64,000 nt of DNA from Actinomycetota bacterium (GTDB lineage: Bacteria; Actinomycetota; UBA4738; HRBIN12). A model generated the notes under the pieces. It was not told the origin of the DNA. It ran no database searches and saw only the letters and a program-made list of their open reading frames with translations. This document shows positions 20,927 to 61,232 of the stretch, one piece after another. A program made the position numbers and the translations under genes. Location: positions 23,903 through 87,902 of the forward strand of contig JBEVGU010000038.1 in assembly GCA_040511595.1 (NCBI GenBank), read 5' to 3'. Position 1 is the first letter of the stretch. Each line of letters begins with the position of its first letter.

Positions 20927-20938
20927 GGGCTCCAGCTC

Positions 20939-22301: not shown

Positions 22302-22348
22302 GCGCCGCCCAGGCCAGGAAGCCGTCCGTCTAGGATGAGGAGGTCCAC

Positions 22349-26136: not shown

Positions 26137-26155
26137 CGGAGGCGATCACCGAACC

Positions 26156-28066: not shown

Positions 28067-28068
28067 GC

Positions 28069-28713: not shown

Positions 28714-28720
28714 GGAGGCG

Positions 28721-29086: not shown

Positions 29087-29092
29087 GCGACG

Positions 29093-29923: not shown

Positions 29924-29959
29924 GCTCACGGCGATGCGCAGGAAGGGAGCACGAGGCTG

Positions 29960-31264
29960 ATGCGTGAGGGCAAGAATCGGCAGAGCCTGCTGCTGCCGAT
30001 CCTGATCCCCCTGGCGGTGCTCGCCGTGATCGGGCTGGTGCTGGTTGGATTCTCCCGCGTGCTGCTCGCCGTCTCGCACACCGCGGCGACCGTCGTGGCC
30101 CTCGTGGCCGCCGCCGCGGTCGTGGCGGTTGGAGGGTACGTCGCATCGAGGCGACGCGTGAGCGGCGCCACGCTCTTCTCGATGGTGGCGGCGGTGACGG
30201 GCATCGCGATGCTCGCCGGTGGCCTGGCCGTCGTGGCCGCGCCGTTGGAGGAGGAGGGCGGGGGCGAGCCGGCGGAGGGGCCCGTGGTGACGCTCGCGGC
30301 TCCCGAGGGCGCCGCGGCCGACGGCTTCTCGACCGACGAGCTGTCCGCGCCCTCGGACGAGCCCTTCACGCTCGAGTTCGACAACGAGGATCCGTCGGTG
30401 GCCCACAACGTGGTGCTCTTCGACGGCCCGGACGCCGACGCACCGGCGCTCTTCACCGGCGGGCTGGTCACGGGGCCGAGCACCGCCAACTACTCGGTCG
30501 AGGCGGTGCCCGAGGGGAAGTACTTCTTCCACTGCGAGGTGCACCCGACGACCATGACGGGCACGATGACGGCCGCGCCGGGCGGCGGTGGCGGTGGCGG
30601 CGGCGGTGGCGGCGTCACGGTGGTCGCTGCCGACCTCGCCTTCGACACCGATACGATCGAGCTGGCGCCCGACGTCGAGAACACGATCACGTTCGACAAT
30701 CAGGACGCGGGCACGCCGCACAACATCGCGATCTACACCGATGACTCGCTCTCCGAGTCGCTGTTCGTGGGCGATCTCGTGACCGGTCCCGACACCATCG
30801 AGTACACGATCGCCCCCATCCCCCCCGGTGAGTACTACTTCCACTGCGACGTGCACCCCACCATGAGCGGGACGGTCGTCGTGGCCGCCGATGGCGGTGG
30901 CGGAGGGGGTGGTAGCGGCGGTGGCGGCGGCGAACCGTCGGATGAGCCGCCCGCCGACGGGGGTGGAGGCGGTGCTGGCACCGCGACGGCCTCGATCGGG
31001 GCCGAGGGCACGGCGTTCGACACATCCACCCTCAGCTGGCCCGCCGACTCCGACGTGACGCTCTCGTTCGACAATCGCGATCCCGTCGACGTGGCCGGGC
31101 CGCACAACGTGGCGGTCTACGACGGCGAAGCGGCGCTGTTCACCGGCGAGCTGGTCGAGGGGCCGGCCACCGTCGACTACGTGGTCCCGCCCATGCCGGC
31201 GGGGAGCTACGAGTTCCGATGCGACGTGCATCCGACGATGGCCGGGACGGTCGAGGTCACCTGA
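29960..31264 (+). CDS. membrane-anchored protein with three tandem type-1-copper cupredoxin domains joined by poly-Gly linkers
   Basis: Three N-terminal TM helices. The motif HN...(43-44 aa)...C-x2-H-x3-M occurs three times (AHNVV/HCEVHPTTM; PHNIA/HCDVHPTM; PHNVA/RCDVHPTM). Confidence 0.8.
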   Translation: MREGKNRQSLLLPILIPLAVLAVIGLVLVGFSRVLLAVSHTAATVVALVAAAAVVAVGGYVASRRRVSGATLFSMVAAVTGIAMLAGGLAVVAAPLEEEGGGEPAEGPVVTLAAPEGAAADGFSTDELSAPSDEPFTLEFDNEDPSVAHNVVLFDGPDADAPALFTGGLVTGPSTANYSVEAVPEGKYFFHCEVHPTTMTGTMTAAPGGGGGGGGGGGVTVVAADLAFDTDTIELAPDVENTITFDNQDAGTPHNIAIYTDDSLSESLFVGDLVTGPDTIEYTIAPIPPGEYYFHCDVHPTMSGTVVVAADGGGGGGGSGGGGGEPSDEPPADGGGGGAGTATASIGAEGTAFDTSTLSWPADSDVTLSFDNRDPVDVAGPHNVAVYDGEAALFTGELVEGPATVDYVVPPMPAGSYEFRCDVHPTMAGTVEVT

Positions 31265-31272
31265 CGACGTCC

Positions 31273-31872
31273 GTGGACGAGCCCACAGCCCGCCAGGAAG
31301 ACCGGGTCGGCAGGCGCGAGGGCCGCCGCACGTGGGGGATCGTCGCGTCGATCGCGTCGATCGTCGTCGTCGTCGGGATCCTCGCCTATGCCCTTCGCCC
31401 GACGACCGATCCGCGGGTGGAAGGAGGCGTCGCGGAGCTGGACGATCCGTTGCCGCGCCTGCAGGGGGAGGGGGTCGCCGGCGCCGCCGTCGACACCGAT
31501 GCGATGGAGTGGTCGGCGCTGGTGGTGAACGTCTGGGCGACCTGGTGCGAGCCCTGCCGTCGCGAGCAGCCCGCGTTGCGGCAGGTGCGATCCGACTTCG
31601 AGGCTCGCGACGTCGAGTTCCTCGGCGTCGACTATCGCGACGACCGGGCGGCGGCGATGCGGTGGATCGAGGACTTCGACGTGTCGTATCCGAGCCTGCA
31701 CGACCCGGACGGGCGGACCGCCGCGCTGCTGGGCTTCCCGTTCCTGCCCGACACGTACGTCGTCGACGCCTCCGGCACGATGCGCTACGCGATCTACGGC
31801 GAGACGAACGCTGAGGAGCTCTCGGGGCTGATCGAGGAGGTGCTGGCGGAGCAGGACGCCGCCGAGGCCTAG
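31273..31872 (+). CDS. thiol-disulfide oxidoreductase ResA/TlpA-like
   Basis: TM anchor plus WATWCEPC thioredoxin motif. The start codon is uncertain (GTG at 31273 or upstream). Confidence 0.75.
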   Translation: MDEPTARQEDRVGRREGRRTWGIVASIASIVVVVGILAYALRPTTDPRVEGGVAELDDPLPRLQGEGVAGAAVDTDAMEWSALVVNVWATWCEPCRREQPALRQVRSDFEARDVEFLGVDYRDDRAAAMRWIEDFDVSYPSLHDPDGRTAALLGFPFLPDTYVVDASGTMRYAIYGETNAEELSGLIEEVLAEQDAAEA

Positions 31873-33692
31873 ACGACGGCGTCGAGCGCGACCGCGCCGA
31901 ACAGGGCCGCGAGGTAGACGATGGAGTACGTGAACAGCCGCCACGACCGGTTCGCGTCGGCGTGGCGCCACAGCGCCAGCGCCCGGTAGACGAACAGCCC
32001 GCCGAGCGTGACCGCCGTGATGGTGTAGATCGGCCCGAGGCCGGCGGCCGGGACGAGGAGCAGCGTCGTGCCGAACAGCGCGAGTGAGTACACGAAGATC
32101 TGTCGCCGCGTCTCGTCGTCGCCCTTGACCACGGGCAGCATCGGCACGCCTGCCGCCGCGTAGTCGCCGCTGAACCGGAGCGAGAGCGCCCAGAAGTGCG
32201 GCGGCGTCCAGACGAAAACGATCGCGAACAGGATCCAGGCTGGCAGGGCGAGCGAACCGGTCACCGCGGCCCATCCGATCAGCGCCGGCGCGGCGCCGGC
32301 CGCTCCGCCGATCACGATGTTCTGCGTAGTCGAGCGCTTCAGCCACATCGTGTAGACGACCACGTAGAAGGCGATCGCCGCGAGCGAGAGGGTTGCCGCC
32401 AGAACGTTCACGGTCATCGCCAGGAACAAGAAGGAGAACGCACCGAGCCAGAACCCGAAGGCGAGCGCGCGTTCGGGCGTGACCTGGTCGGCGGGGAGCG
32501 GGCGGCCACGGGTGCGGCGCATCACCTCGTCGATGTCGCGGTCGAGGTACATGTTGATCGCGTTCGCCCCGCCCGCGGCGAGCGAGCCGCCGACCAGGGT
32601 CGCGAGCACGAGCCAGGGCGACGGCACGGCGCCCTCGGCGAGCATCATCGCGGGAACGGTCGTGATGAGCAGCAGCACGATGATGCGTGGCTTCGTGAGC
32701 CGGTAGTAGGCAGTGATCGTGTCGGACAGCGGCGTGGGGGCGGCGATCTCCGCCGCTCGTTCCCGGGGTTCCGCGAGAGCGTCGTCACCGCCGAGACTCG
32801 GCTCGCGCCGGGCGACCACGGCGAGGGCGACGACGGTGGCCCAGATGACGGCCGACGCGGCCACGTGCAGCGCTCGGGGCCAGGTCGAGAGCTCCGTGGC
32901 CACGTTGATGCCGCCGATCGCGACTTGCGCCACGAACAGCCCGCCGGCCAACGTCGAGAGGTGGACGAGCCTGGTCGAGCGCACGGGCATCGTTCGCGCG
33001 CGAACGACGAGCCAGAGCACCAGCGCGGCCACCGCGATCGCGAGCACGCGGTGGGCGAACATCTCGGCCGCTCCCTGTGGGCCGAACGACGGGATGAGCC
33101 GCCCGCCCATCAACGGCCAGTCCCGGAAGGCGAGCCCCGCCCCCTCGGCGCGCACGTACGTCCCGACGAGCAGCAGGCCGAACGTCGCGACGGCCGTGAG
33201 CATCGCGAGCCTCGCGTAGGCCCGGTCGCCGGCGCGCCGGTCCCCCTCGAACGCCAGCGCGGTGGCGGCGACCAGCACGCCGAGCACGATCATCGCGAGT
33301 CCGAAATGCAGGGTGACCACGGCGGGGTCGAGGGCGCTGTTCACGACCGCGCCGCCGAGCGCTCCCTGTACTCCGAACAACGGCACCAGCGCCACGGCGA
33401 GCCAGACGGCCGAGCGCGGCGTGGCGCTCGGGTGCCCACGTCGGGCGCGCACCAGCTCCACGACCCCGGCCACGGCCAGCATCACCGCGAGCAGCCCCGA
33501 GACGACGCCGAGCGCTCGGTGCGTGTACTCGATCAGCGTGTGGTACTCCCACCTCGGCACCCAGCTGCCGAAGCACCTCGGCCAGTCCGGGCACCCGTCG
33601 CCCGACCCGGTGGCGCGCACCAGTCCGCCCCATGCGACCAGCACCACGGTCGAGACCGTGGTGGCGACGGCCAGTCTCTGGAAGCGGGTCAT
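31869..33692 (-). CDS. ctaAB: fused heme A synthase (CtaA/COX15) and protoheme IX farnesyltransferase (CtaB/heme O synthase)
   Basis: The N-terminal half has the CtaA motifs GCPDWPRC and EYTHR. The C-terminal half has the UbiA motifs YYRLTKPRI and NMYLDRDID. Confidence 0.85.
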   Translation of the reverse strand: MTRFQRLAVATTVSTVVLVAWGGLVRATGSGDGCPDWPRCFGSWVPRWEYHTLIEYTHRALGVVSGLLAVMLAVAGVVELVRARRGHPSATPRSAVWLAVALVPLFGVQGALGGAVVNSALDPAVVTLHFGLAMIVLGVLVAATALAFEGDRRAGDRAYARLAMLTAVATFGLLLVGTYVRAEGAGLAFRDWPLMGGRLIPSFGPQGAAEMFAHRVLAIAVAALVLWLVVRARTMPVRSTRLVHLSTLAGGLFVAQVAIGGINVATELSTWPRALHVAASAVIWATVVALAVVARREPSLGGDDALAEPRERAAEIAAPTPLSDTITAYYRLTKPRIIVLLLITTVPAMMLAEGAVPSPWLVLATLVGGSLAAGGANAINMYLDRDIDEVMRRTRGRPLPADQVTPERALAFGFWLGAFSFLFLAMTVNVLAATLSLAAIAFYVVVYTMWLKRSTTQNIVIGGAAGAAPALIGWAAVTGSLALPAWILFAIVFVWTPPHFWALSLRFSGDYAAAGVPMLPVVKGDDETRRQIFVYSLALFGTTLLLVPAAGLGPIYTITAVTLGGLFVYRALALWRHADANRSWRLFTYSIVYLAALFGAVALDAVV

Positions 33693-33796
33693 CGTGGGTT
33701 CCTCACCGTGCCTCGGGGGTTGGCTCACCGCGACGGCCACGCGGCGCCCACATGATAGTGCGGGGGTCGCCCGGCGAGCTGCGAGATACTCCGCAC

Positions 33797-34696
33797 ATGA
33801 CCATGGAGCCCGCCCTGTCGATCCCCACGCTCGACATCGTTCGCGAGGCCGTCGACCCCGCCGTGCGCCGCGCGCTCGAGGAAGCGGCGTCCGATCTCAC
33901 CACCGTGGATCCACGGGCGGGGCTCGTGGTGGAAGAGATCGCTCGCCTCGTGGACGCCGGTGGGAAGCGGGTCCGCCCGGCGTTCTGCGTGTGGGGGTTC
34001 CGGGCCGGGGGCGGCGATGCGGGTCCTGCCGAGGGGATCCGAGGGCCGATCGTCCGGGTCGCCGCCGCGCTCGAGCTCCTGCACACGATGGCGCTGATCC
34101 ACGACGACCTCATGGACGAGGCGTCCGAGCGCCGGGGCGTAGCTGCGACGGCTTCCCACCTGTCGGCGGAGGCCGTGCGCCGCGGCCTCGCGGTCGACGC
34201 CGCACGCTTCGGACGCTCGGGCGCGATCCTCGCCGGCGACCTCGCCGCGGTGCTGGCCGATCGGCTGATGGTGAGCAGCGGATTCCGCTCCGAGGTCCTC
34301 GTCCGAGCCCTGGTCCGCTACCACGAGATGCGCATCGACATGGCCGCCGGCCAGATGCTCGACGTGGCCGGACTCGCCGAGCAACCGAGCTCGGCCCTCG
34401 CCGCCGCTCGGCTGAAGGGCGGCAGCTATTCCGTGGAAGGCCCCCTGCTCATCGGCGCGACGCTCGCCGACGCCGAGCCCGCTGTGATCGATGCGCTCAG
34501 CGCGTTCGGTGCCCCGCTGGGGGAGGCATTCCAATTGCGGGACGACTTGCGCGATCGCGACGGCGCGCACGGAGCCACGCCCGAGACCGTGAACCACCTC
34601 GTGGCGCGGGCGCGCGCCGCGCTGCGCCCTGCGCCGATCGCTTCGGAGTCGGCGGGCGCGCTCGACGAGCTGGCCAGCTCGGTGGCGGTTCGGTGA
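33797..34696 (+). CDS. polyprenyl diphosphate synthase (GGPP-synthase-like)
   Basis: First aspartate-rich motif LIHDDLMD. Second motif region RDDLRD. Confidence 0.75.
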   Translation: MTMEPALSIPTLDIVREAVDPAVRRALEEAASDLTTVDPRAGLVVEEIARLVDAGGKRVRPAFCVWGFRAGGGDAGPAEGIRGPIVRVAAALELLHTMALIHDDLMDEASERRGVAATASHLSAEAVRRGLAVDAARFGRSGAILAGDLAAVLADRLMVSSGFRSEVLVRALVRYHEMRIDMAAGQMLDVAGLAEQPSSALAAARLKGGSYSVEGPLLIGATLADAEPAVIDALSAFGAPLGEAFQLRDDLRDRDGAHGATPETVNHLVARARAALRPAPIASESAGALDELASSVAVR

Positions 34697-35118
34697 GCGA
34701 CGATCTCGAGGGCCTGCGGCGGTCGTTCGGCGACGTGCCGGCGTGTCGGATCGCCACGGTGCGCCTCGACGGGGGGCCCTACGTGGCTCCGCGGTGGTTC
34801 GTCTGGCGCGACGATGGCCTCTGGGTCGCCACGAGGGTCGGCGACGCCACCTGGGAGCACACGCAGCGCGACGGTCGGGTCTCGGTGCTGATCGATCGAG
34901 GACGCGACTGGAGCGAGCTCGCGGGCGTACGGATCGAAGGCGTCGCCGAGACCTACCCCGCGGAGCATCCGGATCTGCGCGGACCCATGTCGAGCTGGCA
35001 CGAGAAGTACCGCACGATGTTCGCCGGAGACGGCTTCGAGTCGTTCACCCGCGACGTGATCGCTCTCGGGTTCCTTCGGGTCGTTCCCTCGCGCGTCGAC
35101 GCCTGGAGCCACCGCTGA
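34693..35118 (+). CDS. pyridoxamine-5'-phosphate-oxidase-fold (PPOX/F420-dependent family) protein
   Basis: GTGA overlap with the upstream gene. Split-barrel fold similarity. Confidence 0.6.
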   Translation: MSDDLEGLRRSFGDVPACRIATVRLDGGPYVAPRWFVWRDDGLWVATRVGDATWEHTQRDGRVSVLIDRGRDWSELAGVRIEGVAETYPAEHPDLRGPMSSWHEKYRTMFAGDGFESFTRDVIALGFLRVVPSRVDAWSHR

Positions 35119-35229
35119 CACGTGTGCCGCCGGCCGAAGGAACGGCTCCGCCCACGTGCGTTGCCCGTCGTCGCGAGGGCGGGGTAGCGTGGCCGGTGCG
35201 CATCGGGACGACGTGCGGTAGCCTGAGCT

Positions 35230-35247
35230 TTGTGAAGGTTTTCACAA
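35230..35247. promoter_or_regulatory. Rex operator TTGTGAAGGTTTTCACAA
   Basis: Perfect 7-4-7 inverted repeat matching the actinobacterial Rex box. It sits ~80 bp upstream of the reductase gene that leads into the nuo operon. Confidence 0.7.
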
Positions 35248-35326
35248 GCCTCTCCCGACCTGTCGGTCAGATGGGGCCGGCGGATCGGAGCGGCGATCGT
35301 GTCCTCACCGCCTGGAGGGGATCGGC

Positions 35327-36577
35327 GTGAACGGACAGCCAGTGCAGACCGACGTGCTCGTGGTCGGAGGCGGACCGGGCGGCGCCGCGGCCGCCTATCA
35401 CCTGGCTCGGCACGGCCTCGACGTCACGGTCGTCGATCGCTCGACGTTCCCTCGGGAGAAGGTCTGCGGCGACGGGCTCACCCCTCGCAGCGTCGCCGCC
35501 CTGGTGCGCATGGGGATCGACACCGACGACCCGGGCTTCCAGCGCGTGCAGGGCCTGCGCGTGTATTCGCGCTACGCCACGATCGAGCTCCCCTGGCCGG
35601 AGCTCTCGAGCTGGCCCGACTACGGCCTCGTGATGCCGCGAGCGAGGTTCGACCACCTGTTGATCGAGCGGGCCCAGAAGGCCGGCGCGCGGCTGCTCGA
35701 GCGGACCGAGGCGGTGGAGCCGCTCCTCGACGGCGTGTGGGTGACGGGGGCCAGCGTTCGGCCGGCAGGGGATCGCGAGGCGGAGCCGACCCAGATCGTC
35801 GCTCGGTTCACGATCGCCGCCGACGGCGCCGCCAGCCGGTTCGCGACGCCGGCCGGTGTGCGCCGCGACGACTCCCGCCCGCTCGGCATCGCCGCACGCC
35901 GGTACTACCGCGTGCCCTACCATCCCGGTCCGTGGTTCGAGTCGTGGCTCGACCTGTGGGAAGGCGACCTGTTGCTGCCGGGGTACGGCTGGCTCTTCCC
36001 CATGGTGGGGGGCCGTATCAACCTCGGGGCGGGTCTGCTCAACACGTTCAAGGACTTCAAGCAGATCTCCGCCCAGCGCCTGTTCGACGCGTTCGCGACG
36101 ATGCTGCCCGAGGACTGGGGCATCGGCGAGGAGGCGGCGGAGGGACGGGTGCTCTCTGGGCCCTTGCCGATGGGCCTGAACCGCGTGCCCGAGGTCGTGC
36201 CGGGCATGCTGTTGATCGGCGACGCGGCCGGGGCCGTGAACCCGTTCAACGGCGAGGGCATCGCCTACGCGATGGAGACCGCGGAGGTCGCCTCCGAGCT
36301 CGTCCACGAGGCGCTCGTGCGGGACCGTCCGGGCATCGCGATGATGTACCCAACCGTGTTACGAGAGCGATACGGCGAGTACTTCTCGATCGGCCGGGGC
36401 TTCGCGAAGCTGATCGGACGCCCGGCGATCATGGGGCGAGCCACGAAGTACATGCTCCCGAATCGACGCGTGATGAGCTTCGCGATGCGCGTGATGGCCA
36501 ACCTCACCGATGGGCCCGAGGGTGACCGACAGGACCGGCTCTTCCATCTGATGCAACGGATCGCGAGCGCGTCGTGA
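35327..36577 (+). CDS. FAD-dependent geranylgeranyl reductase family protein (MenJ-like isoprenoid quinone side-chain reductase)
   Basis: Contains VLVVGGGPGGAAAAY and the GDAAG motif. Similar to the geranylgeranyl reductase / MenJ family. Confidence 0.8.
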   Translation: MNGQPVQTDVLVVGGGPGGAAAAYHLARHGLDVTVVDRSTFPREKVCGDGLTPRSVAALVRMGIDTDDPGFQRVQGLRVYSRYATIELPWPELSSWPDYGLVMPRARFDHLLIERAQKAGARLLERTEAVEPLLDGVWVTGASVRPAGDREAEPTQIVARFTIAADGAASRFATPAGVRRDDSRPLGIAARRYYRVPYHPGPWFESWLDLWEGDLLLPGYGWLFPMVGGRINLGAGLLNTFKDFKQISAQRLFDAFATMLPEDWGIGEEAAEGRVLSGPLPMGLNRVPEVVPGMLLIGDAAGAVNPFNGEGIAYAMETAEVASELVHEALVRDRPGIAMMYPTVLRERYGEYFSIGRGFAKLIGRPAIMGRATKYMLPNRRVMSFAMRVMANLTDGPEGDRQDRLFHLMQRIASAS

Positions 36578-38060: not shown

Positions 38061-39407
38061 ATGCCCGACGCCTCCACGCCGCCCACCGCTCACGATCGGC
38101 GCAGCGCGGAGATGCAGATCGGTCCGGACACCGCCGAGGTCCACCTGGACGAGCAGCACGAGCGCGTCGATCCTCGCACGGGCGAGATCCGGCAGGAGAC
38201 GATGATCATCAACATGGGGCCGCAGCACCCCTCGACCCACGGGGTGCTGCGCCTGCTGTTGGAGCTCGACGGCGAGACGGTGATCAAGTGCACGCCGATC
38301 ATCGGCTACCTGCACACCGGCATCGAGAAGAACACCGAGTACCGCACGTGGATGCAGGGGGTCACCTACGTCACGCGCGCCGACTACCTCTCTCCGTTCT
38401 TCAACGAGCTGGGGTACTGCCTCGCGGTGGAGCGGCTGCTCGGCATCGAGGCGCCGCCGCGCGCCCAGGTCATCCGGGTGCTGATGATGGAGCTGAACCG
38501 CATCTCCTCGCACCTGGTGTGGCTCGCCACGGGCAGCCTGGAGCTCGGCGCGGTGAGCGTGATGCTGTACGGCTTCCGCGAGCGCGAGGTCCTGCTGGAG
38601 ATCTTCGAAGAGGCCACCGGGCTTCGCATGAACCACGCGTACATCCGCATCGGCGGCGTGATCATGGATCTCACCGACGAGGGAATCGAGAAGATCGAAC
38701 GGTTCCTCGAGGAGATGCCGAGTCGCATCGACGAGTACGAGGCGATCCTGAACGAGAACCCGATCTGGCTCGAGCGCAACGTGGGCGTCGGGAAGCTCTC
38801 CGCCGAGGACGCCCTCGCACTCGGCGTCACCGGGCCGATGCTGCGATCGGCCGGCGTGAGCACCGACGTGCGCAAGGACGCCCCGTACTGCGGGTACGAG
38901 ACCTACGAGTTCGACGTGCCCGTGCGCACCGAGGCCGACGCGTACGCGCGCTACCGCATCCGCCTCGACGAGATGCGCGAATCGATGAAGATCGTGCGCC
39001 AGTGCCTCGAGCGGCTCGAGGAACCCGGCCCCGTGATGGTCGAGGATCCGAAGGTGGCGTGGCCGGCCAGGCTCTCCGTCGGTCCCGACGGCATCGGCAA
39101 CGACCCGGCGTACATCCGCCACATCATGGAAGAGTCGATGGAGGCGCTGATCCATCATTTCAAGATGGTCACCGAGGGGGTCGAGGTACCGCCCGGAGAG
39201 GTGTACCAGCCGGTCGAGTCGCCCCGCGGCGAGCTGGGGTTCTACGTGGTCTCCGACGGTGCACACCGGCCGTACCGCGTCAAGATCCGAGACCCGTCGT
39301 TCGTGAACCTGCAGGCGGTCCCGACGATGGTGGAAGGGTCGCTCGTGGCCGACGCGATCGCCTCGATCGCCTCGCTCGACCCCGTGATGGGCGGGGTGGA
39401 CCGCTGA
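38061..39407 (+). CDS. nuoD: NADH-quinone oxidoreductase subunit D
   Basis: 49-kDa subunit similarity. Confidence 0.9.
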
Positions 39408-51405: not shown

Positions 51406-52416
51406 GTGAGCCGGCGGGTGATCCCGGGGCTCGGGGCGCCCGACGCCACGCTCGAGTCGGAGGTGCGCACCCGCCTCGACCAGGTCGAGGAGGCGCTCGA
51501 GAAGTCCGTGCGGGTCGAGGCCTCGGGCATGCTCGCCGAGACGTCGTCGTACCTGATCGCCGCCGGCGGGAAGCGGTTCCGGGCGATGCTCGTGTTGCTC
51601 GCCGGCTACTTCGGCGACGCGGCCGACCCCAGGCTCGTGCCCGGCTCGGTCTCGATCGAGCTCGTGCACCTCGCCACGCTGTACCACGACGACGTCATCG
51701 ACGAGGCCGACGCCAGGCGAGGCGCGCCAAGCGCCAACATGCGATGGGACAACACCGTCGCGATCCTCACCGGCGACTACCTGTTCGCCCGCGCCTCGGA
51801 GATCTCCACGGACCTCGGCACCGAGGTCTGTCGCCTGCTCGCCCGCACGATCGCGATCCTCTGCGACGGACAGATCCGCGAGGTCGACAGCTCGGCCGAG
51901 GTCGAGCAAGAGATCGCGGCGTATCTGGAGATCATCCGCCGGAAGACGGCCTCGTTGATCGCGACCTCGTGCCGTCTCGGCGGCATGCTCTCCGACGCCG
52001 ACCCGGAACACGTCGACGTGCTCGAGCGGTTCGGCGGCGCCCTGGGCATGGCCTACCAGCTCTCCGACGACATCATGGACATCACGTCGTCGCAGATGGA
52101 GCTCGGCAAGGAGCCGGGGCAGGACCTCCGCGAGGGCGTGTACACCCTGCCGGTGCTGCACGCTCTGGCGCACGACGACCGCCGGCAAGAGCTCGCTCGC
52201 GTTCTGTCCCACGGGCCGCCCGACGGCGAGCTGCTCGACCGCGCCCTCGAGATCGTCCGGTCCGGTGGCTCGGTCGACGCGGCGAGGGCGGCCGTGGCCG
52301 ACGAGGTGCGACTGGCGACGCAGCTGGCCGAGCGACTCCCCGAGCGGCACGCCAGGCTCGCGCTGATCCAGCTGGCGGGGTTCCTCGCGGCCCGGTGCGG
52401 GGCGGAGGTCGCATGA
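51406..52416 (+). CDS. long-chain polyprenyl diphosphate synthase (IspB/GrcC1-like)
   Basis: Both aspartate-rich motifs are present (LYHDDVIDEAD; QLSDDIMD). Confidence 0.85.
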   Translation: MSRRVIPGLGAPDATLESEVRTRLDQVEEALEKSVRVEASGMLAETSSYLIAAGGKRFRAMLVLLAGYFGDAADPRLVPGSVSIELVHLATLYHDDVIDEADARRGAPSANMRWDNTVAILTGDYLFARASEISTDLGTEVCRLLARTIAILCDGQIREVDSSAEVEQEIAAYLEIIRRKTASLIATSCRLGGMLSDADPEHVDVLERFGGALGMAYQLSDDIMDITSSQMELGKEPGQDLREGVYTLPVLHALAHDDRRQELARVLSHGPPDGELLDRALEIVRSGGSVDAARAAVADEVRLATQLAERLPERHARLALIQLAGFLAARCGAEVA

Positions 52417-52483: not shown

Positions 52484-52849
52484 ATGAGCGACTACTACGC
52501 GTCATACGGAGTGGTGCTGGCGGTCTTGGCCGCCGGAGCACTGTTGGTTGCGGTGGCGTTCACCACGGCCCGGTTGGTGGCCCCCAGCAAGCCCAACCGC
52601 GAGAAGCTCACCACGTACGAGTGCGGCATCGATCCGGTCGGGGAAGGCTGGTCGCAGAGCAACATCCGCTACTACGTATACGGCTTCCTGTTCGTGATCT
52701 TCGACGTGGAGAGCGTGTTCCTCTTCCCCTGGGCGCGAGAGCTCGAGAACATCGGCTACGCCGCCGTGGGCGAGATGGCGGTCTTCATCGGCATCCTGGC
52801 CGTCGGCCTGCTCTACGCCTGGCGCAAGGGGGTCTTGCGGTGGGCCTGA
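52484..52849 (+). CDS. nuoA2: complex-I-like subunit A, second copy
   Basis: Diverged NuoA paralog. Confidence 0.85.
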
Positions 52850-53340
52850 TCACCGAGCGGACCCCACTGCCCAGGATCCAGCCCGTGAAGTTCATCCTCA
52901 ACTGGGGACGCCGCTACTCCCTGTGGGTGATGAACTTCGGCCTGGCCTGCTGCGCGATCGAGTTCATCGCGGCCTCGACCGCCAAGAACGACTTCATCCG
53001 GCTGGGCGTGATCCCCACGGCTCACGGCCCCCGGCAGGCCGACCTGCTCGTGGTGGCCGGCACCCTCACCGACAAGATGGCTCCGGCGCTCAAGCGCGTC
53101 TACGAGCAGATGCCCGATCCGAAGTACGTGATCTCGTTCGGCTCGTGTTCGAACTGCGGCGGCCCGTACTGGGACAGCTACTCGGTGACCAAGGGCGTCG
53201 ACCAGATCGTGCCGATCGATGTGTACGTGCCCGGCTGCCCTCCGCGTCCGGAGGCGCTGCTGCACGGCATCATCGAGCTGCAGAACAAGATCAAGGACGA
53301 GGACATCCAGGAGAAGTTCGGTGCCCCCGCTGTCTCCTGA
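52840..53340 (+). CDS. nuoB2: complex-I-like subunit B, second copy (N2-cluster cysteines retained)
   Basis: [13 protein letters not shown] and PGCPP motifs are present. Confidence 0.85.
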
Positions 53341-53836
53341 CGAGGCCGGCTCACGCATGCGGGCGCGGTTCGGCGCCGACGTCCTCGACGTGGTCGAGCA
53401 ACACGGTCACACGGTCGCGACCGTGTCACGCGGCCGGTACCACGACGTGTGCCGGTTCCTTCGAGACGAACCCGAGTTCGCCTGCGACTACGCCGACTTC
53501 ACTGCGGGGGTCGACCGGGGAACCGATGGCGGCTTCGAGGTCCTGACGCACCTGTTCTCGACCACGCACCATCACAACGTGCGGGTGAAGGTGCAGGTGC
53601 CTGCCGACGACGCGGTGGTGCCCACGGTGAGCGACCTGTGGGCCACCTGTGATTGGCACGAGCGCGAGACGTCCGAGATGTTCGGCATCCGGTTCGAGGG
53701 CCATCCGCAGCCGGTGAAGCTGCTGCTCTCCGAGCCGTTCGAGGGCCACCCGTTGCGCAAGGACTTCCCGCTGATGACCCGCGAGGCCAAGCCGTGGCCC
53801 GGGGCGGTCGAGGGCGAGGAGGACGAGGAGGAATGA
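53321..53836 (+). CDS. nuoC2: complex-I-like subunit C, second copy (30-kDa subunit only, not a C-D fusion)
   Basis: [12 protein letters not shown] motif. Start could be GTG at 53321 or ATG at 53357. The gene ends by overlapping the nuoH2 start. Confidence 0.8.
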
Positions 53837-54846
53837 TCGACCTCCTCGCGCAGGCCGGCGGCTCGATCGTCGAGGAGTGGACCTCGAACTTCTGGTTGGC
53901 GTTGATCCTGAAGACGGTGGCCGTGATGGCGTTCTTCCTCATCGTGCCGCTCGGCGTCGGCTACATGGAGCACAAGGTGCTCGCGCACATGCAGGGTCGG
54001 CTCGGTCCGATGGAAGCCGGCGTGTTCCACGGGTGGGCCCAGCTGATCGCCGACGGCGTGAAGTTCATCCAGAAGGAGGACATCGTCCCCGCCGCGGCCG
54101 ACCGCACGATCTTCACCCTGGCGCCGGCCGTGGCGATGGTGCCCTACATCGCGATCCTCGTCGTGCTGCCGTTCAGCGGGTCGCTGTTCGCCCTCAACCT
54201 CGACGTCGGCATCTTCTTCGTGATGGCGATGTCGAGCGTCTCCGTGATCGGTGTGCTCATGGCCGGGTGGTCCAGCGCCAACAAGTTCTCTTTGATCGGC
54301 GCGCTGCGAGCCGCCGCCCAGCTGATCGCCTACGAGCTGCCGCTCGTGCTGGCTGCCGCGGGCGTCGTGATGCTCGCCGGCGTCACCTCGATGGTCGGCA
54401 TCGTCGAGGCGCAGGAGTCCCTGTGGTACGTCGTGCCGCTCTTCCCGCTGTTCCTGATCTTCATGGTGGCCTCGCTCGCCGAGCTCAGCCGCACGCCGTT
54501 CGACATGCCGATCGCCGACTCCGAGATCATCTACGGCGCCTACACCGAATACGGGGGGCTGAAGTTCGCGTTCTTCCTGCTCGCCGAGTACGGCGGCATC
54601 GTGGCCCTGTCGGGCATCGCGGCGGTGCTGTTCCTCGGGGGCTATCAGGGGCTACCCGGCATCCCGCTTCCCGACCCGATCTGGATGGCACTGAAGATCG
54701 GCCTGCTGTCGTTCGTCGTCATCTGGTGCCGGGCCACCTACCCCCGGCTGCGCGAGGACCAGTTGCAGCGGTTCGCCTGGCTCGCGTTGATCCCCTTGTC
54801 GCTCGTGTGGATCCTGGTCGCGGCCTTCCTCAAGGTCGCGTTCTGA
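53833..54846 (+). CDS. nuoH2: complex-I-like subunit H, second copy
   Basis: ATGA overlap with nuoC2. NuoH paralog. Confidence 0.85.
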
Positions 54847-54871
54847 TCGAGGAATCAGGAAGACGACCCCG

Positions 54872-55402
54872 ATGGCCATCGACACGTCGCAGCGGAAGGA
54901 TCAGCCGGAGTCCGGCGCGGGCCAGGGCCTGCTCAAGGGACTCAGCGTCACGCTGAAGACGATGCTGAAGCCCGCCGTCACGGTCCAGTACCCGCACGTG
55001 AAGCCCGACCTGCCGGCCCGCACTCGAGGCGTGATCGCGCTGAAGGAGGGCAACTGCACGGTCTGCTACAAGTGCTCGCGCGAGTGCCCCGACTGGTGCA
55101 TCTACATCGACGCGCACAAGGAGACGCACGAGCCGGCCGCCGGCGGACGAGGCAGGTCGATGAAGGTCCTCGACCGGTTCGCGATCGACTACGCCCTGTG
55201 CATGTACTGCGGCATCTGCGTCGAGGTGTGCCCGTTCGACGCGCTCTTCTGGAGTCCGGAGTTCGAGTACGCGGAGTACGAGATGGACCTGCTCATCCAT
55301 GAGAAGGATCGCCTCGAGGAGTGGACGTACACGGTGCTGCCGCCGCCGCCCCTCGAGGCCGGCGCCGAAGGCGCTCCGGCAGCCGAAGGCGGGAGCGCGT
55401 GA
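54872..55402 (+). CDS. nuoI2: complex-I-like subunit I, second copy
   Basis: Two 4Fe-4S motifs ([12 protein letters not shown]; [12 protein letters not shown]). Confidence 0.85.
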
Positions 55403-55902
55403 CGGCGCAGGAGTACGCCTTCCTCGTGATGGCCGTGGTGGGCGGGCTGGCGGCGATCGCCGTCGTGACAGCCCGCAACGTGGTGCACGCCGCGCTCTAC
55501 CTCGTGGTCGCGCTGCTGTCGGTGGCGGGCGTCTACCTACTGCTCGGCGCCGAGTTCGTCGGATGGGTCCAGATCCTGATCTACGTGGGCGCGATCGTGA
55601 TCCTGTTCCTGTTCGGCCTGATGTTGACCAAGGCCCCGATCGGTCGCGACACGCTCGACAATCAGCAGCGGTGGCTCGGCGCGCTCGTCGGCGTCGGCGT
55701 GTTCGCGGGGCTCGTCTTCCTGATTCAAGAGGCGTTCCCGGTGCAGGAGGCGCAGGCCTTCGAGACGTTCCAGGGCACCACGGGCGCGGTGGGCGAGGCG
55801 ATCTTCAGCACGTACGTGCTGCCGTTCGAGGCGGTCTCGTTCCTGTTGCTGGCGGCGTTGATCGGCGCCATCGTGCTCGCGCGGAAGGACGATGCGACGT
55901 GA
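55399..55902 (+). CDS. nuoJ2: complex-I-like subunit J, second copy
   Basis: GTGA overlap with nuoI2. NuoJ paralog. Confidence 0.8.
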
Positions 55903-56201
55903 TCCGGCTGCCGCTCGTGCTGATGTTCTCCGCCCTGCTGTTTTCCGCCGGCGTCTACGGCGTGCTCGCGCGACGCAACGCGATCATGGTGCTGATGGCG
56001 ATCGAGCTGATGCTGAACGCCGTCAACGTGAACCTCGTCGCGTTCGCCTCGGCCTTCCACGAGATGGGCGGGCAGGTGTTCGCCCTCTTCGTGATCGCCG
56101 TGGCCGCCGCAGAGGTCGGCATAGGGCTGGCGATCGTGATCCTGCTCTTCCGCACGCGCGAGTCGATCAACGTGGACGAGGTGAACCTGCTCAAGTGGTG
56201 A
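55899..56201 (+). CDS. nuoK2: complex-I-like subunit K, second copy
   Basis: GTGA overlap with nuoJ2. NuoK paralog. Confidence 0.85.
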
Positions 56202-58195
56202 ACCTGCTGGCCGCCGAGGGCGACATCACGTACCGGGCCACGACGAACGGAACATGGTTCGTCGAGCACGCGTGGATCTTAGTGCTGCTGCCGATGATCT
56301 CGGCGGTCCTGATCCTGCTCCTCGGCAAGCGCACGCCCGGCAGGGGCGCCGTCTACGGCATCGCCGGCGTGGGTGCTGCGTTCGTGTGCGCGCTCGGGGT
56401 GCTCTGGCACTTCGTGGAGGGCGGCGGTCCGTTCGAGGGGAGCATCGACTGGTTCACGGTGGGGCCGCTCCACCTCGAGCTCGGCATCCTCGTCGACGGT
56501 CTCACGGGCGTCATGGTGGTGGTCGTCACCGCGGTCTCGCTCTGTGTGCACGTCTACTCGCTCGGCTACATGCACGGCGACGAGCGGTTCACGTGGTTCT
56601 ACGCCGTGCTGTCGCTGTTCACCGCCGCGATGCTCACGGTGGTCGTCTCGAACAACCTGATCCAGCTGCTCGTGGGCTGGGAGGTCATGGGCGTCTGCTC
56701 GTACCTGTTGATCGGCCATTGGTGGGAGGTCAAGGAGAACTCCGACGCCGCGATCAAGGCGTTCATCACGACCCGGGTCGGCGACGTGCCGTTCACGTTC
56801 GGCATCATCGGGTTGATCGCCGTGACCGGGTTCACGACGACCAACATCGGCGAGATCTCCCACGAGCTCGGGCTCGGTGGGGTCTCACCGCTGTACATCT
56901 CGGTGGCGGCGATCCTGTTGTTCGGCGGGACCGTCGGGAAGTCGGCCCAGTTCCCCCTGCACGTCTGGCTCCCCGACGCGATGGCGGGCCCGACCCCCGT
57001 GTCGGCCCTGATCCACGCGGCCACGATGGTGGCGGCCGGGGTCTACCTGATCGGACGGCTCTTCGAGGTCTTCATCCTCGCCGACCAATGGGTGCTGACC
57101 ACGGTCAGCATCGTCGCGGCGATCACAGCGCTCGGGGCGGCCGTGCTCGCGATCGTGCAGGACGACATCAAGCGGGTGCTGGCCTACTCGACGCTCTCGC
57201 AGCTCGCGTACATGGTCGCCGGGCTCTCGCTCGGCGAGCTCGGGCTCACGGCGGGGTTCTTCCACCTGTTCACGCACGCGTTCTTCAAGGCGCTGCTCTT
57301 CCTCTGCGCGGGCTCTGTGATCCACGCCGTGCACTCGAACAACATGAGCGACATGGGGGGCCTCCGGAAGTCGATGCCGGTCACGTTCTGGACCATGCTG
57401 ATCGGCTCGCTCGCGCTCGCGGGCATCTTCCCGCTCGCGGGGTTCTGGTCGAAAGACGAGCTGCTCGTCGTGGCTCAGGAGGAGCACGTGACGTGGCTGT
57501 TCGTCGTGTTCCTCGTGACGGCGGTGATCACGGCCTTCTACACGATCCGCATGGTCATGCTCACGTTCTTCGGGGAGTACAGGGGCGAGGCGCACCCGCA
57601 CGAGTCGCCGAGGACGATGACCGGGCCACTGGTCGCGCTCGCCGCCGCGACGATCGGGGTGGGGTTGCTGGGCTCGCCGCAGCTCAACGCCGTGTTCGGA
57701 CAGTGGGTCTTTTTCGAGGCGATCCATGAGGCGGTGTTCGTGCCGTGGATCGCCGTGCTGGCGACCGCGGGAGCGCTGCTCGGCCTCGCCGCCGGATACG
57801 CGCTCTACAAGGAGCGCCGTGCCCCCGATCCGCTGCAGGCCCCGTTGGGCCGGGTGTGGAACGTCCTGGAGAACCGCTACTACATCGACGAGTTCTACAT
57901 GCGGGACATCGTCCGCCCGGTGCGCGACACGTGGTCCGCAGGCGTGAACTGGTTCAACCAGGTCGTCCTCGACGGCGTCGTCAACGGCGCCGCCGTGCTC
58001 GCGAGGACTGGCGCGCAGGCGATCGCCTGGTTCGACCGCACCGTGATCGACGGCGTCGTGAACCTCGTCGGCGAGGGCGCCGGGCGAACCGGCAACGTCT
58101 TGAGGTACCTGCAAACCGGCAACGTGCAGTGGTACGCCGTCGCGCTGTTCGTCGGCGTGATCTCGTTGGCCGTCGTGTTCATCCGAGTCGTCTGA
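56198..58195 (+). CDS. nuoL2: complex-I-like subunit L, second copy
   Basis: GTGA overlap with nuoK2. NuoL paralog (665 aa). Confidence 0.85.
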
Positions 58196-58214
58196 GAGGA
58201 AGCGTGGAGGCCAC

Positions 58215-59750
58215 ATGACCTGGGAGAACTCGGCGATCACGATCACCACCCTGCTGCCCGTCGTGGGGGCGTTGGTGATCCTGGCGATGCCACGGGAGCG
58301 GGAACGCGCGATCCGCGGCCTCGGCATCGCGGTCACGGGATCGGCGCTGGCGCTCGCCGTCGCGATCACGATCGGGTTCGACTACGCGTCCGACGGGCTG
58401 CAGTACGTGCTCGACGTGAACTGGATCAGCGCGATCGGCGTGCGGTACCACGTGGGCATCGACGGCATCTCGCTGCCGCTCTACGTGCTGACGTTCCTGC
58501 TGTCGTTCCTCTGCGCCGTGTACACCTGGCGCTTCGTGCCCGATCCGGGCCGCACCCGCACGTTCCTGGCCCTGATGCTCCTGCTCGAGACCGGCATGGC
58601 CGGCACGTTCATCGCGTTCGACCTGATCCTGTTCTTCGTGTTCTGGGAGATGGTGCTGGTGCCGATGTACTTCCTCATCGCCATCTGGGGCTCGTCGAAC
58701 CGGGAGTACGCGGCGATCAAGTTCTTCCTGTACACGCTGTTCGGCTCGATCTTCATGCTCCTGGGCTTCCTGGCGATGTACTTCCAGGGCCCCGATCCGC
58801 ACACCTTCGACATGGTGGTGCTGCGCGACTTCGGGGCGGGCGGCGGCTTCGGTCAGACGTTCCAGCTGGTCGTCTTCGGCGCCGTGGCGCTCGGGTTCGC
58901 GATCAAGGTCCCGATGTGGCCGTTCCACACGTGGCTGCCCGACGCCCACACCGAGGCGCCGACGATCGGCTCGGTGCTGCTGGCCGGCATCATGCTGAAG
59001 ATGGGCACGTACGGGTTCATCCGCATCGCCATCCCGTTCCTGCCGTACGGAGCGCAGAAGTACGCTCCGTGGATCGGCGGGCTCGCCGCGATCGCGATCG
59101 TGTACGCCGCGCTCGCGTGTCTCGCGCAGAAGGACCTGAAGCGGCTGATCGCGTTCTCCTCGGTGGGACACATGGGCTTCGTGATGCTCGGCATCGCCAC
59201 GCTCACCGAGATCGGCATCCAGGCGGCGATCTTCGGCATGGTGGCCCACGGGGTGATCACGGGCATGCTGTTCTTCTGCGTCGGCTCGATCTACGACCGG
59301 TACCACACGCGGGAGATCGCGAAGATCGGCGGAGGCATGTTGCAGACGATGCCGAAGCTCGGAAGTGTTTTCGCGTTCGTGGCGATCGCGTCCCTCGGCC
59401 TCCCCGGGCTCGCCGGGTTCTGGGGCGAGCTCATGGCGCTGCTCAGCTCGTTCAGCCCGAACGAGTTCGTCCTCGCCGACCAGGTCGGGCTCTTCCGGAC
59501 GTTCATGGTCATGGGGGGCATCGGCACGGTGCTCACGGCCGGCTACTTCCTGTGGATGCTGCAGCGGGTGAACATGGGCAGGCTGCCGGACCAGTGGCGC
59601 GAAGCCGGCCTGCGCGACGTGCTCGCGGTCGAGTGGGTGTCGTGGCTGCCGTTGCTCGCGCTGATCGTCGTGCTCGGGCTCTACCCGCGGCTGGTCTTCG
59701 GGGTCACCGACGAGACGGTGAACGGGCTCACGAGACTGCTGGGAGGCTAG
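58215..59750 (+). CDS. nuoM2: complex-I-like subunit M, second copy
   Basis: NuoM paralog. Confidence 0.85.
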   Translation: MTWENSAITITTLLPVVGALVILAMPRERERAIRGLGIAVTGSALALAVAITIGFDYASDGLQYVLDVNWISAIGVRYHVGIDGISLPLYVLTFLLSFLCAVYTWRFVPDPGRTRTFLALMLLLETGMAGTFIAFDLILFFVFWEMVLVPMYFLIAIWGSSNREYAAIKFFLYTLFGSIFMLLGFLAMYFQGPDPHTFDMVVLRDFGAGGGFGQTFQLVVFGAVALGFAIKVPMWPFHTWLPDAHTEAPTIGSVLLAGIMLKMGTYGFIRIAIPFLPYGAQKYAPWIGGLAAIAIVYAALACLAQKDLKRLIAFSSVGHMGFVMLGIATLTEIGIQAAIFGMVAHGVITGMLFFCVGSIYDRYHTREIAKIGGGMLQTMPKLGSVFAFVAIASLGLPGLAGFWGELMALLSSFSPNEFVLADQVGLFRTFMVMGGIGTVLTAGYFLWMLQRVNMGRLPDQWREAGLRDVLAVEWVSWLPLLALIVVLGLYPRLVFGVTDETVNGLTRLLGG

Positions 59751-59759
59751 GCCGCCTCG

Positions 59760-61232
59760 ATGGACATCGACTACCACGCCCTGTTGCCGGAGATCCTGCT
59801 CTCGGCCACGATCCTGCTGGTGCTCGTCGTCGACGTGTTCCTGCCCGAGCGCGCGAAGTGGTTCGCGATGCCGATCGGGCTCGCAGGCGTGGTCGCCTCG
59901 CTCGTCGCGGTGGCATCGCTGATCGGGGCCGGCACGCGCGTGAGCTTCGGCGGCACCTACGTCGTCGACGAGTTCGCGCTGTTGTTCAAGGGCTTCTTCC
60001 TCGTGACGGCGATCCTCGTGCTGGGGGTGTCGCTGCGGTACTTCCGGGAAGGCGGCTTCTACCAGGGTGAGTACTACTTCCTGCTGCTCACGTCGTTCTT
60101 GGGCTGCGTGATGATGCCCAGCTCACGCGACATGCTGCTGCTCTTCATCGCGCTCGAGCTGGTCTCGGCGCCCGGCTTCCTGATGGCGGCGTTCCGCAAG
60201 GGCGACGTGAAGTCGAACGAGGCCGGCGTGAAGTTCTTCATCATCGGCGTGCTGTCGACCGCCGTGATGCTGTTCGGCATGAGCCTCATCTACGGCGTGA
60301 CCGGCGGGGAGACGCAGCTCGCGGCCATCGCCGCCGCCCTCGCCGACGTGACGGGAGACATGGAGACCCTCGCCTTCGCGGCGATCCTGTTCGTGGTCGT
60401 GGGGTTCGCGTTCAAGGTCTCCGCGGTCCCGTTCCAGTTCTGGGCTCCCGACACGTACGAGGGCTCCCCGGTGCCGGTGGCGGCGTTCCTCGCGGTCGCC
60501 TCGGCCGTGGCCGGCTTCGCGGGCCTGCTCCAACTGATGTTCGTGGCCTTCGCCGGCCAGCACGAGTTCTGGGTTCCGATCTTCGCGCTCCTGTCGATCG
60601 CGACGATGACCGTGGGGAACCTGGTGGCGTTGCAGCAGACGCAGATGGTCCGGCTGCTCGCCTACTCGGGCATCGCCCAGTCGGGCTACATCCTGATGAC
60701 GTTCGCGCTCGTGACCGACGACGCCGCTTCGAACCGCACGGCGTTCGCTGCGGCGGTCGCCTACATCCTGATCTACGGCATCATGAACCTCGGCGCGTTC
60801 GCCGCGACCGTGGCCGTCTCTCGCCGCCACCCCGCCGTGAGGATCGCCGACTTCGCGGGGCTGCGCGAGACCGCGCCGTTGATCGCCGTGGGCATGGCCG
60901 TGTTCATGATCTCCCTCGCCGGCGTGCCGCCCACGGGCGGGTTCTGGGGGAAGCTGCTGATCTTCCAGGCCGCGATCGAACGCGGCGGCTCGCTCGGGCC
61001 GGCGCTCGCGGTCGTCATGCTCGTGAACTCCGTGATCAGCGTCTTCTACTACCTGCTGGTGCCGCGACAGATGTTCCTGGAGCCGGCCGCCGACCGCTCA
61101 CGACTGCGAGTGCCGGTGCTCGTTACCGCCGTGGTGGCGCTGGCGACCGTGGCGCTCGTGGCCATCTTCGTGCTGCCGAACCCCGTCGCGAGGCTCGCGG
61201 AGATCTCCACGCTGGTTGGCGTCGGCCCCTGA
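59760..61232 (+). CDS. nuoN2: complex-I-like subunit N, second copy
   Basis: NuoN paralog. Confidence 0.85.
   Translation: MDIDYHALLPEILLSATILLVLVVDVFLPERAKWFAMPIGLAGVVASLVAVASLIGAGTRVSFGGTYVVDEFALLFKGFFLVTAILVLGVSLRYFREGGFYQGEYYFLLLTSFLGCVMMPSSRDMLLLFIALELVSAPGFLMAAFRKGDVKSNEAGVKFFIIGVLSTAVMLFGMSLIYGVTGGETQLAAIAAALADVTGDMETLAFAAILFVVVGFAFKVSAVPFQFWAPDTYEGSPVPVAAFLAVASAVAGFAGLLQLMFVAFAGQHEFWVPIFALLSIATMTVGNLVALQQTQMVRLLAYSGIAQSGYILMTFALVTDDAASNRTAFAAAVAYILIYGIMNLGAFAATVAVSRRHPAVRIADFAGLRETAPLIAVGMAVFMISLAGVPPTGGFWGKLLIFQAAIERGGSLGPALAVVMLVNSVISVFYYLLVPRQMFLEPAADRSRLRVPVLVTAVVALATVALVAIFVLPNPVARLAEISTLVGVGP

Follow-up and report, generated by a model that had tools for sequence, protein, structure and literature searches.

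A ten-gene second complex I operon without nuoD, in tandem behind the canonical nuoA-N operon of an actinobacterium

Gene content of the second nuo operon

The stretch of DNA considered here, referred to as the window, comprises 64,000 nucleotides (64 kb) of contig JBEVGU010000038.1 from a member of the Actinomycetota, and has a G+C content of about 69%. Positions 52484 to 61232 of its forward strand are occupied by ten co-oriented genes for subunits of respiratory complex I, in the order nuoA2-B2-C2-H2-I2-J2-K2-L2-M2-N2, with overlapping start and stop codons or short gaps at the junctions. This operon, nuo2, follows a canonical nuoA-N operon (operon 1), and is free of nuoD, nuoE, nuoF and nuoG. 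We present evidence that it derives from an 11-subunit complex I operon by loss of nuoD2, and that its products probably use a NuoD encoded elsewhere. The ten genes are listed below, with protein lengths in amino acids (aa).

52484-52849, + strand: nuoA2, 121 aa; PF00507, E=7.7e-36; 42% identity to NuoA1
52840-53340, + strand: nuoB2, 166 aa, N2-cluster subunit; PF01058, E=1.1e-27; NCBIfam NuoB subfamily, 222 bits against a cut-off of 116
53321-53836, + strand: nuoC2, 171 aa; PF00329, E=2.4e-39; GTG start inside the end of nuoB2; acidic C-terminus
53833-54846, + strand: nuoH2, 337 aa; PF00146, E=1.1e-100
54872-55402, + strand: nuoI2, 176 aa; Fer4 families at ~1e-9; NCBIfam NuoI models at 1e-27 to 1e-29, under the equivalog cut-offs
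55399-55902, + strand: nuoJ2, 167 aa; PF00499, E=1.6e-41
55899-56201, + strand: nuoK2, 100 aa; PF00420, E=5.9e-29; NCBIfam NuoK equivalog, 121 bits against a cut-off of 57
56198-58195, + strand: nuoL2, 665 aa; PF00361 and PF00662; NCBIfam NuoL equivalog, 622 bits against a cut-off of 556
58215-59750, + strand: nuoM2, 511 aa; PF00361, E=9e-77; TIGR01972, 559 bits
59760-61232, + strand: nuoN2, 490 aa; PF00361, E=3.3e-64; TIGR01770, 376 bits

Every product matched its expected Pfam family with E values from 1e-27 to 1e-100, except NuoI2, which was recognised by its 4Fe-4S domains. The NCBIfam equivalog cut-offs were passed for NuoL, NuoH and NuoK and the subfamily cut-offs for NuoM and NuoN, while NuoC2, NuoI2, NuoA2 and NuoJ2 scored below the equivalog cut-offs and are thus divergent members. 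Homologues of all seven membrane subunits of the complex I superfamily (A, H, J, K, L, M and N) are present, as are the Q-module subunits B, C and I with the ligands of clusters N2 and N6a/N6b. In NuoB2 the N2 ligands are C37, C38, C103 and C133, as placed by alignment to the PSST/Nqo6 chains of solved complex I (E ~1e-55). NuoI2 has two CxxCxxCxxxCP motifs, both membrane glutamates are present in NuoK2, and the motifs with Glu in transmembrane helix (TM) 5, Lys in TM7 and Lys/Glu in TM12 are visible in the sequences of NuoL2, NuoM2 and NuoN2, although NuoN2 has alanine in place of the TM8 lysine. A first-pass annotation, made from the sequence alone, had described a set of ten genes with the full membrane arm plus B, C and I and with the N2 cysteines kept; open reading frames (ORFs), Pfam and NCBIfam matches and the NuoB2 alignment confirm it.

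The same annotation had stated that there is no room for nuoD between nuoC2 and nuoH2, and indeed the stop codon of the former overlaps the start of the latter (ATGA). It had allowed that a nuoD-like frame or pseudogene might have been missed; when NuoD1 and four NuoD2-type proteins were used in tblastn (E<=10) over the window, only nuoD1 was found, the next match being at E ~0.2. The genes nuoE, nuoF and nuoG were likewise found in the window in operon 1 only, with no copy or remnant in nuo2. A hidden or frameshifted nuoD was rejected on the grounds that, apart from nuoD1, tblastn was blank throughout the window, the operon included, and in 16 D-less loci of relatives. Rejected as well was NuoC2 as a C-D fusion or cryptic carrier of D, since relatives of 460-530 aa consist of PF00329 and a low-complexity Ala/Pro/acidic tail only; the one match of 551 aa is a frameshifted canonical C-D pair. 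NuoC2 homologues of 171-176 aa share the N-terminus of the window protein. As it stands, nuo2 is neither the operon of a 14-subunit NADH:quinone oxidoreductase, being free of genes for NuoE, NuoF and NuoG, nor that of an 11-subunit complex I (nuoABCDHIJKLMN), having ten genes and no D; its nearest relatives are of the latter kind.

The genes around nuo2 are as follows.

~36594 (start of nuoA1) to 51383 (end of nuoN1): canonical operon 1, directly upstream of the polyprenyl synthase gene and nuo2
38061-39407, + strand: nuoD1, sole NuoD gene in the window, ~13 kb upstream of nuo2, candidate partner in trans
51406-52416, + strand: polyprenyl synthase gene (pps), sole gene between the operons; its orthologue in the relatives L001-L004 belongs to PF00348
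61325-62248, + strand: htpX-like M48 peptidase gene (PF01435, E=6.6e-37), conserved downstream neighbour of nuoN2

The tandem arrangement with one polyprenyl synthase gene in between is thus as first annotated. Paralogues of the two operons are only 29-51% identical, so that the two sets parted long ago and do not stem from a recent duplication. Scans of the intergenic sequences from nuoN1 through pps to nuoA2 turned up no terminator-like or sigma-70-like site, and neither these scans nor folding rose above the level of shuffled sequences.

Relatives, conservation and loss of nuoD2

Homologues of NuoC2 number thousands; the best 120, from uncultured Actinomycetota, are 74-89% identical to it and 161-193 aa long, most of them 170-176 aa. 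Long metagenomic contigs carry nuoG to nuoN1, pps, the ten genes A2 B2 C2 H2 I2 J2 K2 L2 M2 N2 and the M48 peptidase gene as in the window. Comparison of gene order across related genomes, which the first-pass annotation had suggested, was made by scanning one genome per GTDB species with a NuoC2 alignment; this gave 80 loci, in each of which Nuo homologues were mapped by tblastn. The D-less layout of the window recurred in metagenome-assembled genomes (MAGs) and in Streptomyces-type loci, and a third group of loci contained a nuoD2. The first group consists of six further MAGs (L005-L011; NuoC2 60-79% identical) which share the window layout. To the second belong Streptomyces, Micromonospora, Asanoa, Phytohabitans, Nonomuraea, Actinomadura and some MAGs, with the D-free order (A2)-B2-C2-H2...N2; in the Micromonosporaceae loci A2 was undetected and unrelated genes are inserted. 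The htpX-like gene follows N2 in about seven loci of this group that are long enough, including Streptomyces, Micromonospora, Nonomuraea, Actinomadura and Phytohabitans, and it is also found downstream of nuoN2 in L001-L004 and L010. In the layout from A2 to N2 without D, E, F or G and then htpX, the window is identical to two Streptomyces loci (L056/L057) and to L061, L078 and L054. The shared order and htpX neighbour mark the Streptomyces-type loci as orthologous to nuo2 of the window.

The third group comprises Actinomycetota MAGs (L026, L039, L055, L070, L060) with the order A2-B2-C2-D-H2...N2. C2-D2-H2 was also the order in L085-L088, which are the contexts of matches to the D2 of L026. 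That protein is an intact NuoD of 394 aa with the motifs GPQHPSTHG and GYMHRGFEK and 39% identity to NuoD1, and D2 in general is a normal PF00346 protein of 388-398 aa, ~39% identical to D1. The junction N1-PPS-A2 is kept in the D2-containing L026, L039, L086 and L087; L088 keeps the order, with a divergently oriented two-component pair splitting PPS from A2, and three of the four inspected operons L085-L088 sit behind a polyprenyl synthase gene. Searches with the D2 proteins of L026 and L039 returned hundreds of similar proteins, some of them named Nitriliruptorales or Egibacteraceae. Among the best 120 matches listed for each (at least 69% identity for L026 D2 and at least 74% for L039 D2) there was no contig of Streptomyces or of the window lineage, and tblastn detected no D2-type match within 10 kb of 16 D-less loci.

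Neighbour-joining (NJ) trees were built on concatenated operon-2 subunits, filtered by position against cross-hits to operon 1 and limited to taxa with complete data (300 bootstraps). A concatenated tree with operon-1 cross-hits or taxa missing L, M or N gave artefactual groupings and was discarded for the position-filtered analysis. All actinobacterial operon-2 sets formed one clade (100%, in an initial tree distinct from the discarded one), apart from operon 1 and from the 11-subunit operons of other phyla. The D-less operons came out as monophyletic in 0-2% of bootstraps for concatenated subunits and in 15% for L2 by itself. The window lineage grouped with the D2-containing operons, to the exclusion of the Streptomyces-type clade and outgroups, in 95-100% of replicates (B-H-I-J-K 100%, unrooted, as no outgroup has all five genes; L-M 96%; B-H-J-K-L-M 95%). 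The phylogeny that the first-pass annotation had proposed thus places nuo2 in an actinobacterial operon-2 clade and does not unite the D-less operons; by the same bootstraps, the D-less state of the window is not shared by descent with that of the Streptomyces-type clade.

Since D2-containing relatives have the same tandem layout, the ancestor was an ordinary 11-subunit complex I operon, and the nesting of the window lineage with operons that contain D2, away from the Streptomyces-type clade, means at least two removals of nuoD2. The simplest history would be that of an 11-subunit operon standing in tandem behind nuoA-N and pps and then losing nuoD2. The losses, at least two, would fall on the stem of the Streptomyces/Micromonospora-type clade and in the window lineage, a placement for which confirmation by likelihood is desirable. 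In the window lineage the loss was a clean deletion.

The ten remaining genes are under purifying selection. Their ORFs are intact in the window and across relatives of 60-88% identity, and no split genes were seen in the short-read relatives L006-L008 and L010, which hold part or all of the operon; gene splits in L001, L003-L005 and L009, as well as a split nuoM1 in L002, look like long-read errors. Ratios of nonsynonymous to synonymous substitution rates (dN/dS) against the closest relative, L002, were 0.09-0.24 for nuo2 (B2 lowest with 0.09, K2 0.10, I2 0.14, C2 0.21), similar to 0.14-0.35 for operon 1. For more distant relatives, saturation of dS inflates the ratios, and the "operon 1" values of L010 are cross-hits and were ignored. 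Of the columns that are near-invariant (at least 95% conserved) in D-containing 14- and 11-subunit operons, the window set keeps 355 of 373 (~95%), distributed as 34/35 in B2, 13/14 in C2, 45/47 in H2, 27/28 in I2 and 198/210 in L, M and N together, and the departures are mostly conservative. In NuoN2 the TM8 lysine is replaced by alanine (A249) and a histidine by glutamine (Q226), both at positions at least 95% conserved in D-containing operons; K249 and H226 are kept by five of five Streptomyces-type sequences compared and by one of seven from the window lineage, and one putative proton path may be altered. In L005, L009 and L011 compared to the window, the canonical NuoL1/M1/N1 are 50-62% identical versus 62-86% for their operon-2 counterparts, so that in this lineage the second membrane arm is the better conserved one. 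We propose that the ten remaining nuo2 genes are functional.

Several further observations concern the length and context of individual subunits. A low-complexity Ala/Pro/acidic tail of ~100-350 aa, with no Pfam match, is attached to NuoC2 in Streptomyces-type and many D2-containing operons (L057 9419-11137; P0131, P0133, P0134, P0140); the motif R(E/D)AKPWPG ahead of the tail position is common to all NuoC2 types. NuoI2 has 258-294 aa in D2-containing operons (L085-L088) versus 176 aa in the window. Two long-read Actinomycetota MAGs (L012 9504-12004; L058 9121-12497) have only nuoB2-nuoC2-nuoI2 and then the htpX-like gene, and no homologue of A, H or J-N was found within 10 kb of these three genes. 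In Armatimonadota-like MAGs (L029 6088-8764; L044 7538-10339; L076 7743-10369) a compact nuoB-nuoD-nuoI-nuoC cluster, with no membrane subunits nearby, represents a different, soluble-looking Q-module gene arrangement. In the window itself, the region upstream of nuoA1 (19752-36577) is a respiratory island with cytochrome b, ResB and CcsA cytochrome c assembly genes, CoxII with a fused cytochrome c domain, CoxI with a subunit IV-like tail, a triple-cupredoxin protein, a fused CtaA-CtaB (COX15 and UbiA) gene at 31869-33740 (- strand), and an FAD-dependent reductase directly before nuoA1.

The source of NuoD

The ten proteins would make up the membrane arm in full (A, H, J, K, L, M, N), plus B with cluster N2, C as scaffold and I as the ferredoxin subunit with N6a/b. 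To our knowledge, in every member of the family NuoD and NuoH contribute to both the N2 cluster of NuoB and the quinone cavity. As the quinone/N2 pocket needs the 49-kDa subunit, the nuo2 products would have to assemble with a NuoD made elsewhere, and supply of NuoD in trans is what we consider probable; it is the best-supported reading because what is conserved in D-containing enzymes is still there in B2, C2 and H2. NuoD could come from the adjacent operon, as NuoD1, or from an orphan nuoD2 outside the window, as in Streptomyces. The outcome would be a second complex I isoform with a shared D and possibly shared NuoEFG, and with a different membrane arm and different B, C and I. Electrons might enter through shared NuoEFG or from a donor of the ferredoxin type, as they do in other 11-subunit enzymes.

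Borrowing from the first operon had been put forward in the first-pass annotation, and it is our leading explanation: for the window lineage we lean, tentatively, to NuoD1 as the partner. A weak point in its favour is that nuo2 lies directly behind operon 1 with no terminator detected between; others are that nuoD2 could be lost twice, that Salinispora is listed with one nuoD, and that two MAGs keep only B2-C2-I2 beside htpX, which, if these genes are functional, makes sense only if the subunits can join the canonical set. The competing version of supply in trans is that nuoD2 has been relocated beyond the 64-kb window, giving a self-contained 11-subunit complex I with an unlinked D and nothing shared with operon 1. 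Two papers place the Streptomyces nuoD2 at a separate chromosomal site (PMC3765725, PMC8388888) and D2-type proteins are common in Actinomycetota, yet neither the window nor the 10 kb around each of the 16 D-less loci contains a D2-type match, and the Salinispora list has a single nuoD (PMC3314556). A weak argument is that the D2-type matches listed (best 120) include no window-lineage contig and that the four contexts inspected had D2 inside the operon. On balance we find such a relocation somewhat unlikely for the window, but a serious alternative.

Several points weigh against the reading of a NuoD supplied in trans. The nuoD search covered the 64-kb window, so that an orphan nuoD2 may lie elsewhere, and the four inspected contexts from the L026 D2 search (best 120), all with D2 in the operon, say little on orphan genes. 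The promoter and terminator scans used an E. coli-type consensus and say little about an actinobacterial window of ~69% G+C, and the trees are distance-based only. A clear sequence signature of adaptation of B2, C2 and I2 to D1 was not found in the relative rate of C2 or in parallel substitutions. There was no signal of NuoC2 acceleration after loss of D2: C2 identity divided by the mean identity of the remaining subunits was 0.62-0.85 for pairs of D-less and D-containing operons and 0.68-0.86 among D-containing ones (with one close pair at 0.99). Both D-less clades do show parallel changes relative to actinobacterial D2-containing operons, namely B2 E142H, I2 S134A and C2 A44V/L; H142 of B2 and A134 of I2 match the residues of the operon-1 paralogues, while C2 only resembles its paralogue (V/L versus L). 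These columns, e.g., B2 E142H, also vary among D-containing operons, and as a sign of adaptation to D1 the substitutions are suggestive at most. Direct evidence of assembly exists for no organism.

Two explanations dispense with NuoD altogether, and neither sits well with how conserved the Fe-S subunits are. The operon could be a decaying or silent relic, or its membrane arm could work alone as an Mrp-like cation/proton antiporter with vestigial B2, C2 and I2, as might be thought from the missing nuoD2, the lost TM8 lysine of NuoN2 and the existence of membrane-arm-only clusters in other actinobacteria (Salinispora "partial 2", PMC3314556). The ten window genes and those of the short-read relatives L006-L008 and L010 are, however, free of frameshifts and stops; B2 (most of all) and I2 are among the best conserved, at dN/dS 0.09 and 0.14 and with all Fe-S ligands kept; start/stop overlaps suggest translational coupling; and Streptomyces nuo2 proteins have been seen by proteomics (PMC9739823). 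Decay or a lone antiporter is therefore very unlikely. Less credible still, and in our view close to negligible, is a NuoD-free complex-I-like pump in which the 49-kDa subunit is dispensable, the pocket being re-formed or absent, or is replaced by a non-homologous partner. Such a pump would explain the independent losses of nuoD2 in two lineages and the single nuoD listed for Salinispora, and would accord with a D-less state that arose at least twice, has been stable over long divergence and is accompanied by purifying selection on the operon. Against it, a B homologue pairs with a D homologue in every complex I, NDH-1, Mbh and FHL structure matched by NuoB2, B2, C2 and H2 retain the residues of D-containing enzymes with no remodelling, and nuoD1 is only 13 kb upstream.

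If supply by NuoD1 were confirmed, one NuoD, and perhaps one NuoEFG, serving two membrane arms would be a new mode of flexibility in bacterial respiratory chains. Should an orphan nuoD2 prove universal, the feature would be ordinary.

Comparison with known systems

For some two decades, Streptomyces genomes have been known to carry a second complex I operon that is D-less. Streptomycetes have extra nuoA2, B2, D2 and H2-N2 genes, contiguous except for nuoD2 and expressed together as one operon, with a conserved antisense RNA over nuoL2-M2 (Moody et al. 2013; PMC3765725), and nuoD2 is separate from nuoA2-N2 also in a 2021 paper on S. ambofaciens (PMC8388888). SCO4599-4608 was called "nuo2" in a 2022 paper, which regarded its function as unclear and proposed a "hybrid machinery" with the canonical products (PMC9239103); products of these genes were detected by proteomics (PMC9739823). 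On comparison of the sequences, the window operon is this actinobacterial nuo2 operon, of a described but uncharacterised kind, and not a new enzyme class. The undescribed complex-I-like pump that the first-pass annotation had considered finds no support, as the arrangement, if not its function, has largely been described already in Streptomyces (PMC9239103, PMC3765725) and Salinispora (PMC3314556), and nuo2 is an 11-subunit nuoABCDHIJKLMN operon minus nuoD2 and no separate invention. Nor is it an Mrp-type antiporter, since Nuo models match best, Mrp models score far below their cut-offs and the Fe-S subunits B and I are present, or a relative of group 4 hydrogenases (Mbh/Mbx/FHL), as it has no large-subunit homologue. 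NuoB2 matches PSST of complex I at E ~1e-55 versus 6e-31 for MbhJ and 2e-25 for the FHL subunit.

The Streptomyces operon (S. coelicolor SCO4599-SCO4608; nuoA2, B2, SCO4601, H2-N2) has the gene order and htpX of the window and likewise no D, E, F or G; the two belong to the same operon-2 clade with ~53% concatenated identity. It differs in lying apart from nuoA-N, whereas nuo2 of the window comes directly after nuoN1 and pps, and in a NuoC2 with a Pro/Ala-rich low-complexity tail of ~250 aa, its stop overlapping nuoH2, compared to 171 aa in the window. Streptomyces has an orphan nuoD2 (PMC3765725, PMC8388888), and its D-less state is separate in origin from that of the window. According to the 2022 paper, Streptomyces nuo2 lacks NuoC and NuoL (PMC9239103); in the Streptomyces loci L056/L057 (~10001-15940), B2 and H2 do flank a homologue of NuoC, and a NuoL homologue, 38% identical to NuoL2 along its whole length, is present.

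In Salinispora, Penn and Jensen described a vertically inherited actinobacterial "NDH-1 partial 1" with nuoB, C, H and I-N, a membrane-arm-only "partial 2" with nuoA, H and J-N, and, in a table of complex I candidates compiled by keyword and BLAST, a single nuoD, located in the complete operon (PMC3314556). "NDH-1 partial 1" (Stro0390-0405) has no D, E, F or G, like the window operon, is likewise regarded as D-less and of unclear function, and matches the Micromonospora loci we examined; unlike the window, it has no nuoA listed or detected and has unrelated inserts between B-C and H-I.

The closest operons outside the window lineage are the 11-subunit ones of MAGs (L026, L087, L085 and others; Nitriliruptoria-type), with ~62% concatenated identity to L026. 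They occupy the same tandem spot after nuoN1 and pps and have orthologues of all ten nuo2 genes of the window, but they keep nuoD2 (388-398 aa) between C2 and H2, and have a NuoI2 of 258-294 aa and often a NuoC2 of 278-358 aa (L085-L088). The window and its relatives thus add three things to what was described before, an 11-subunit origin, recurrent loss of nuoD2 under retained selection and a tandem position behind the canonical operon, and with these the sharing of subunits by two complex I isoforms becomes a concrete hypothesis that can be tested in cultured actinomycetes.

A precedent for isoforms which share a core and swap paralogous membrane subunits is given by cyanobacterial NDH-1L and NDH-1MS, as invoked in the Streptomyces papers (PMC3765725, PMC8388888). 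Cyanobacteria swap only NdhD/NdhF paralogues and use a ferredoxin donor, whereas nuo2, known here from its genes, would swap the whole membrane arm as well as B, C and I. With the canonical 14-subunit complex I (operon 1; M. smegmatis 8e9g) nuo2 shares the same ten families and the same cofactor ligands, at 29-51% identity to operon 1, but it does not itself encode D, E, F or G.

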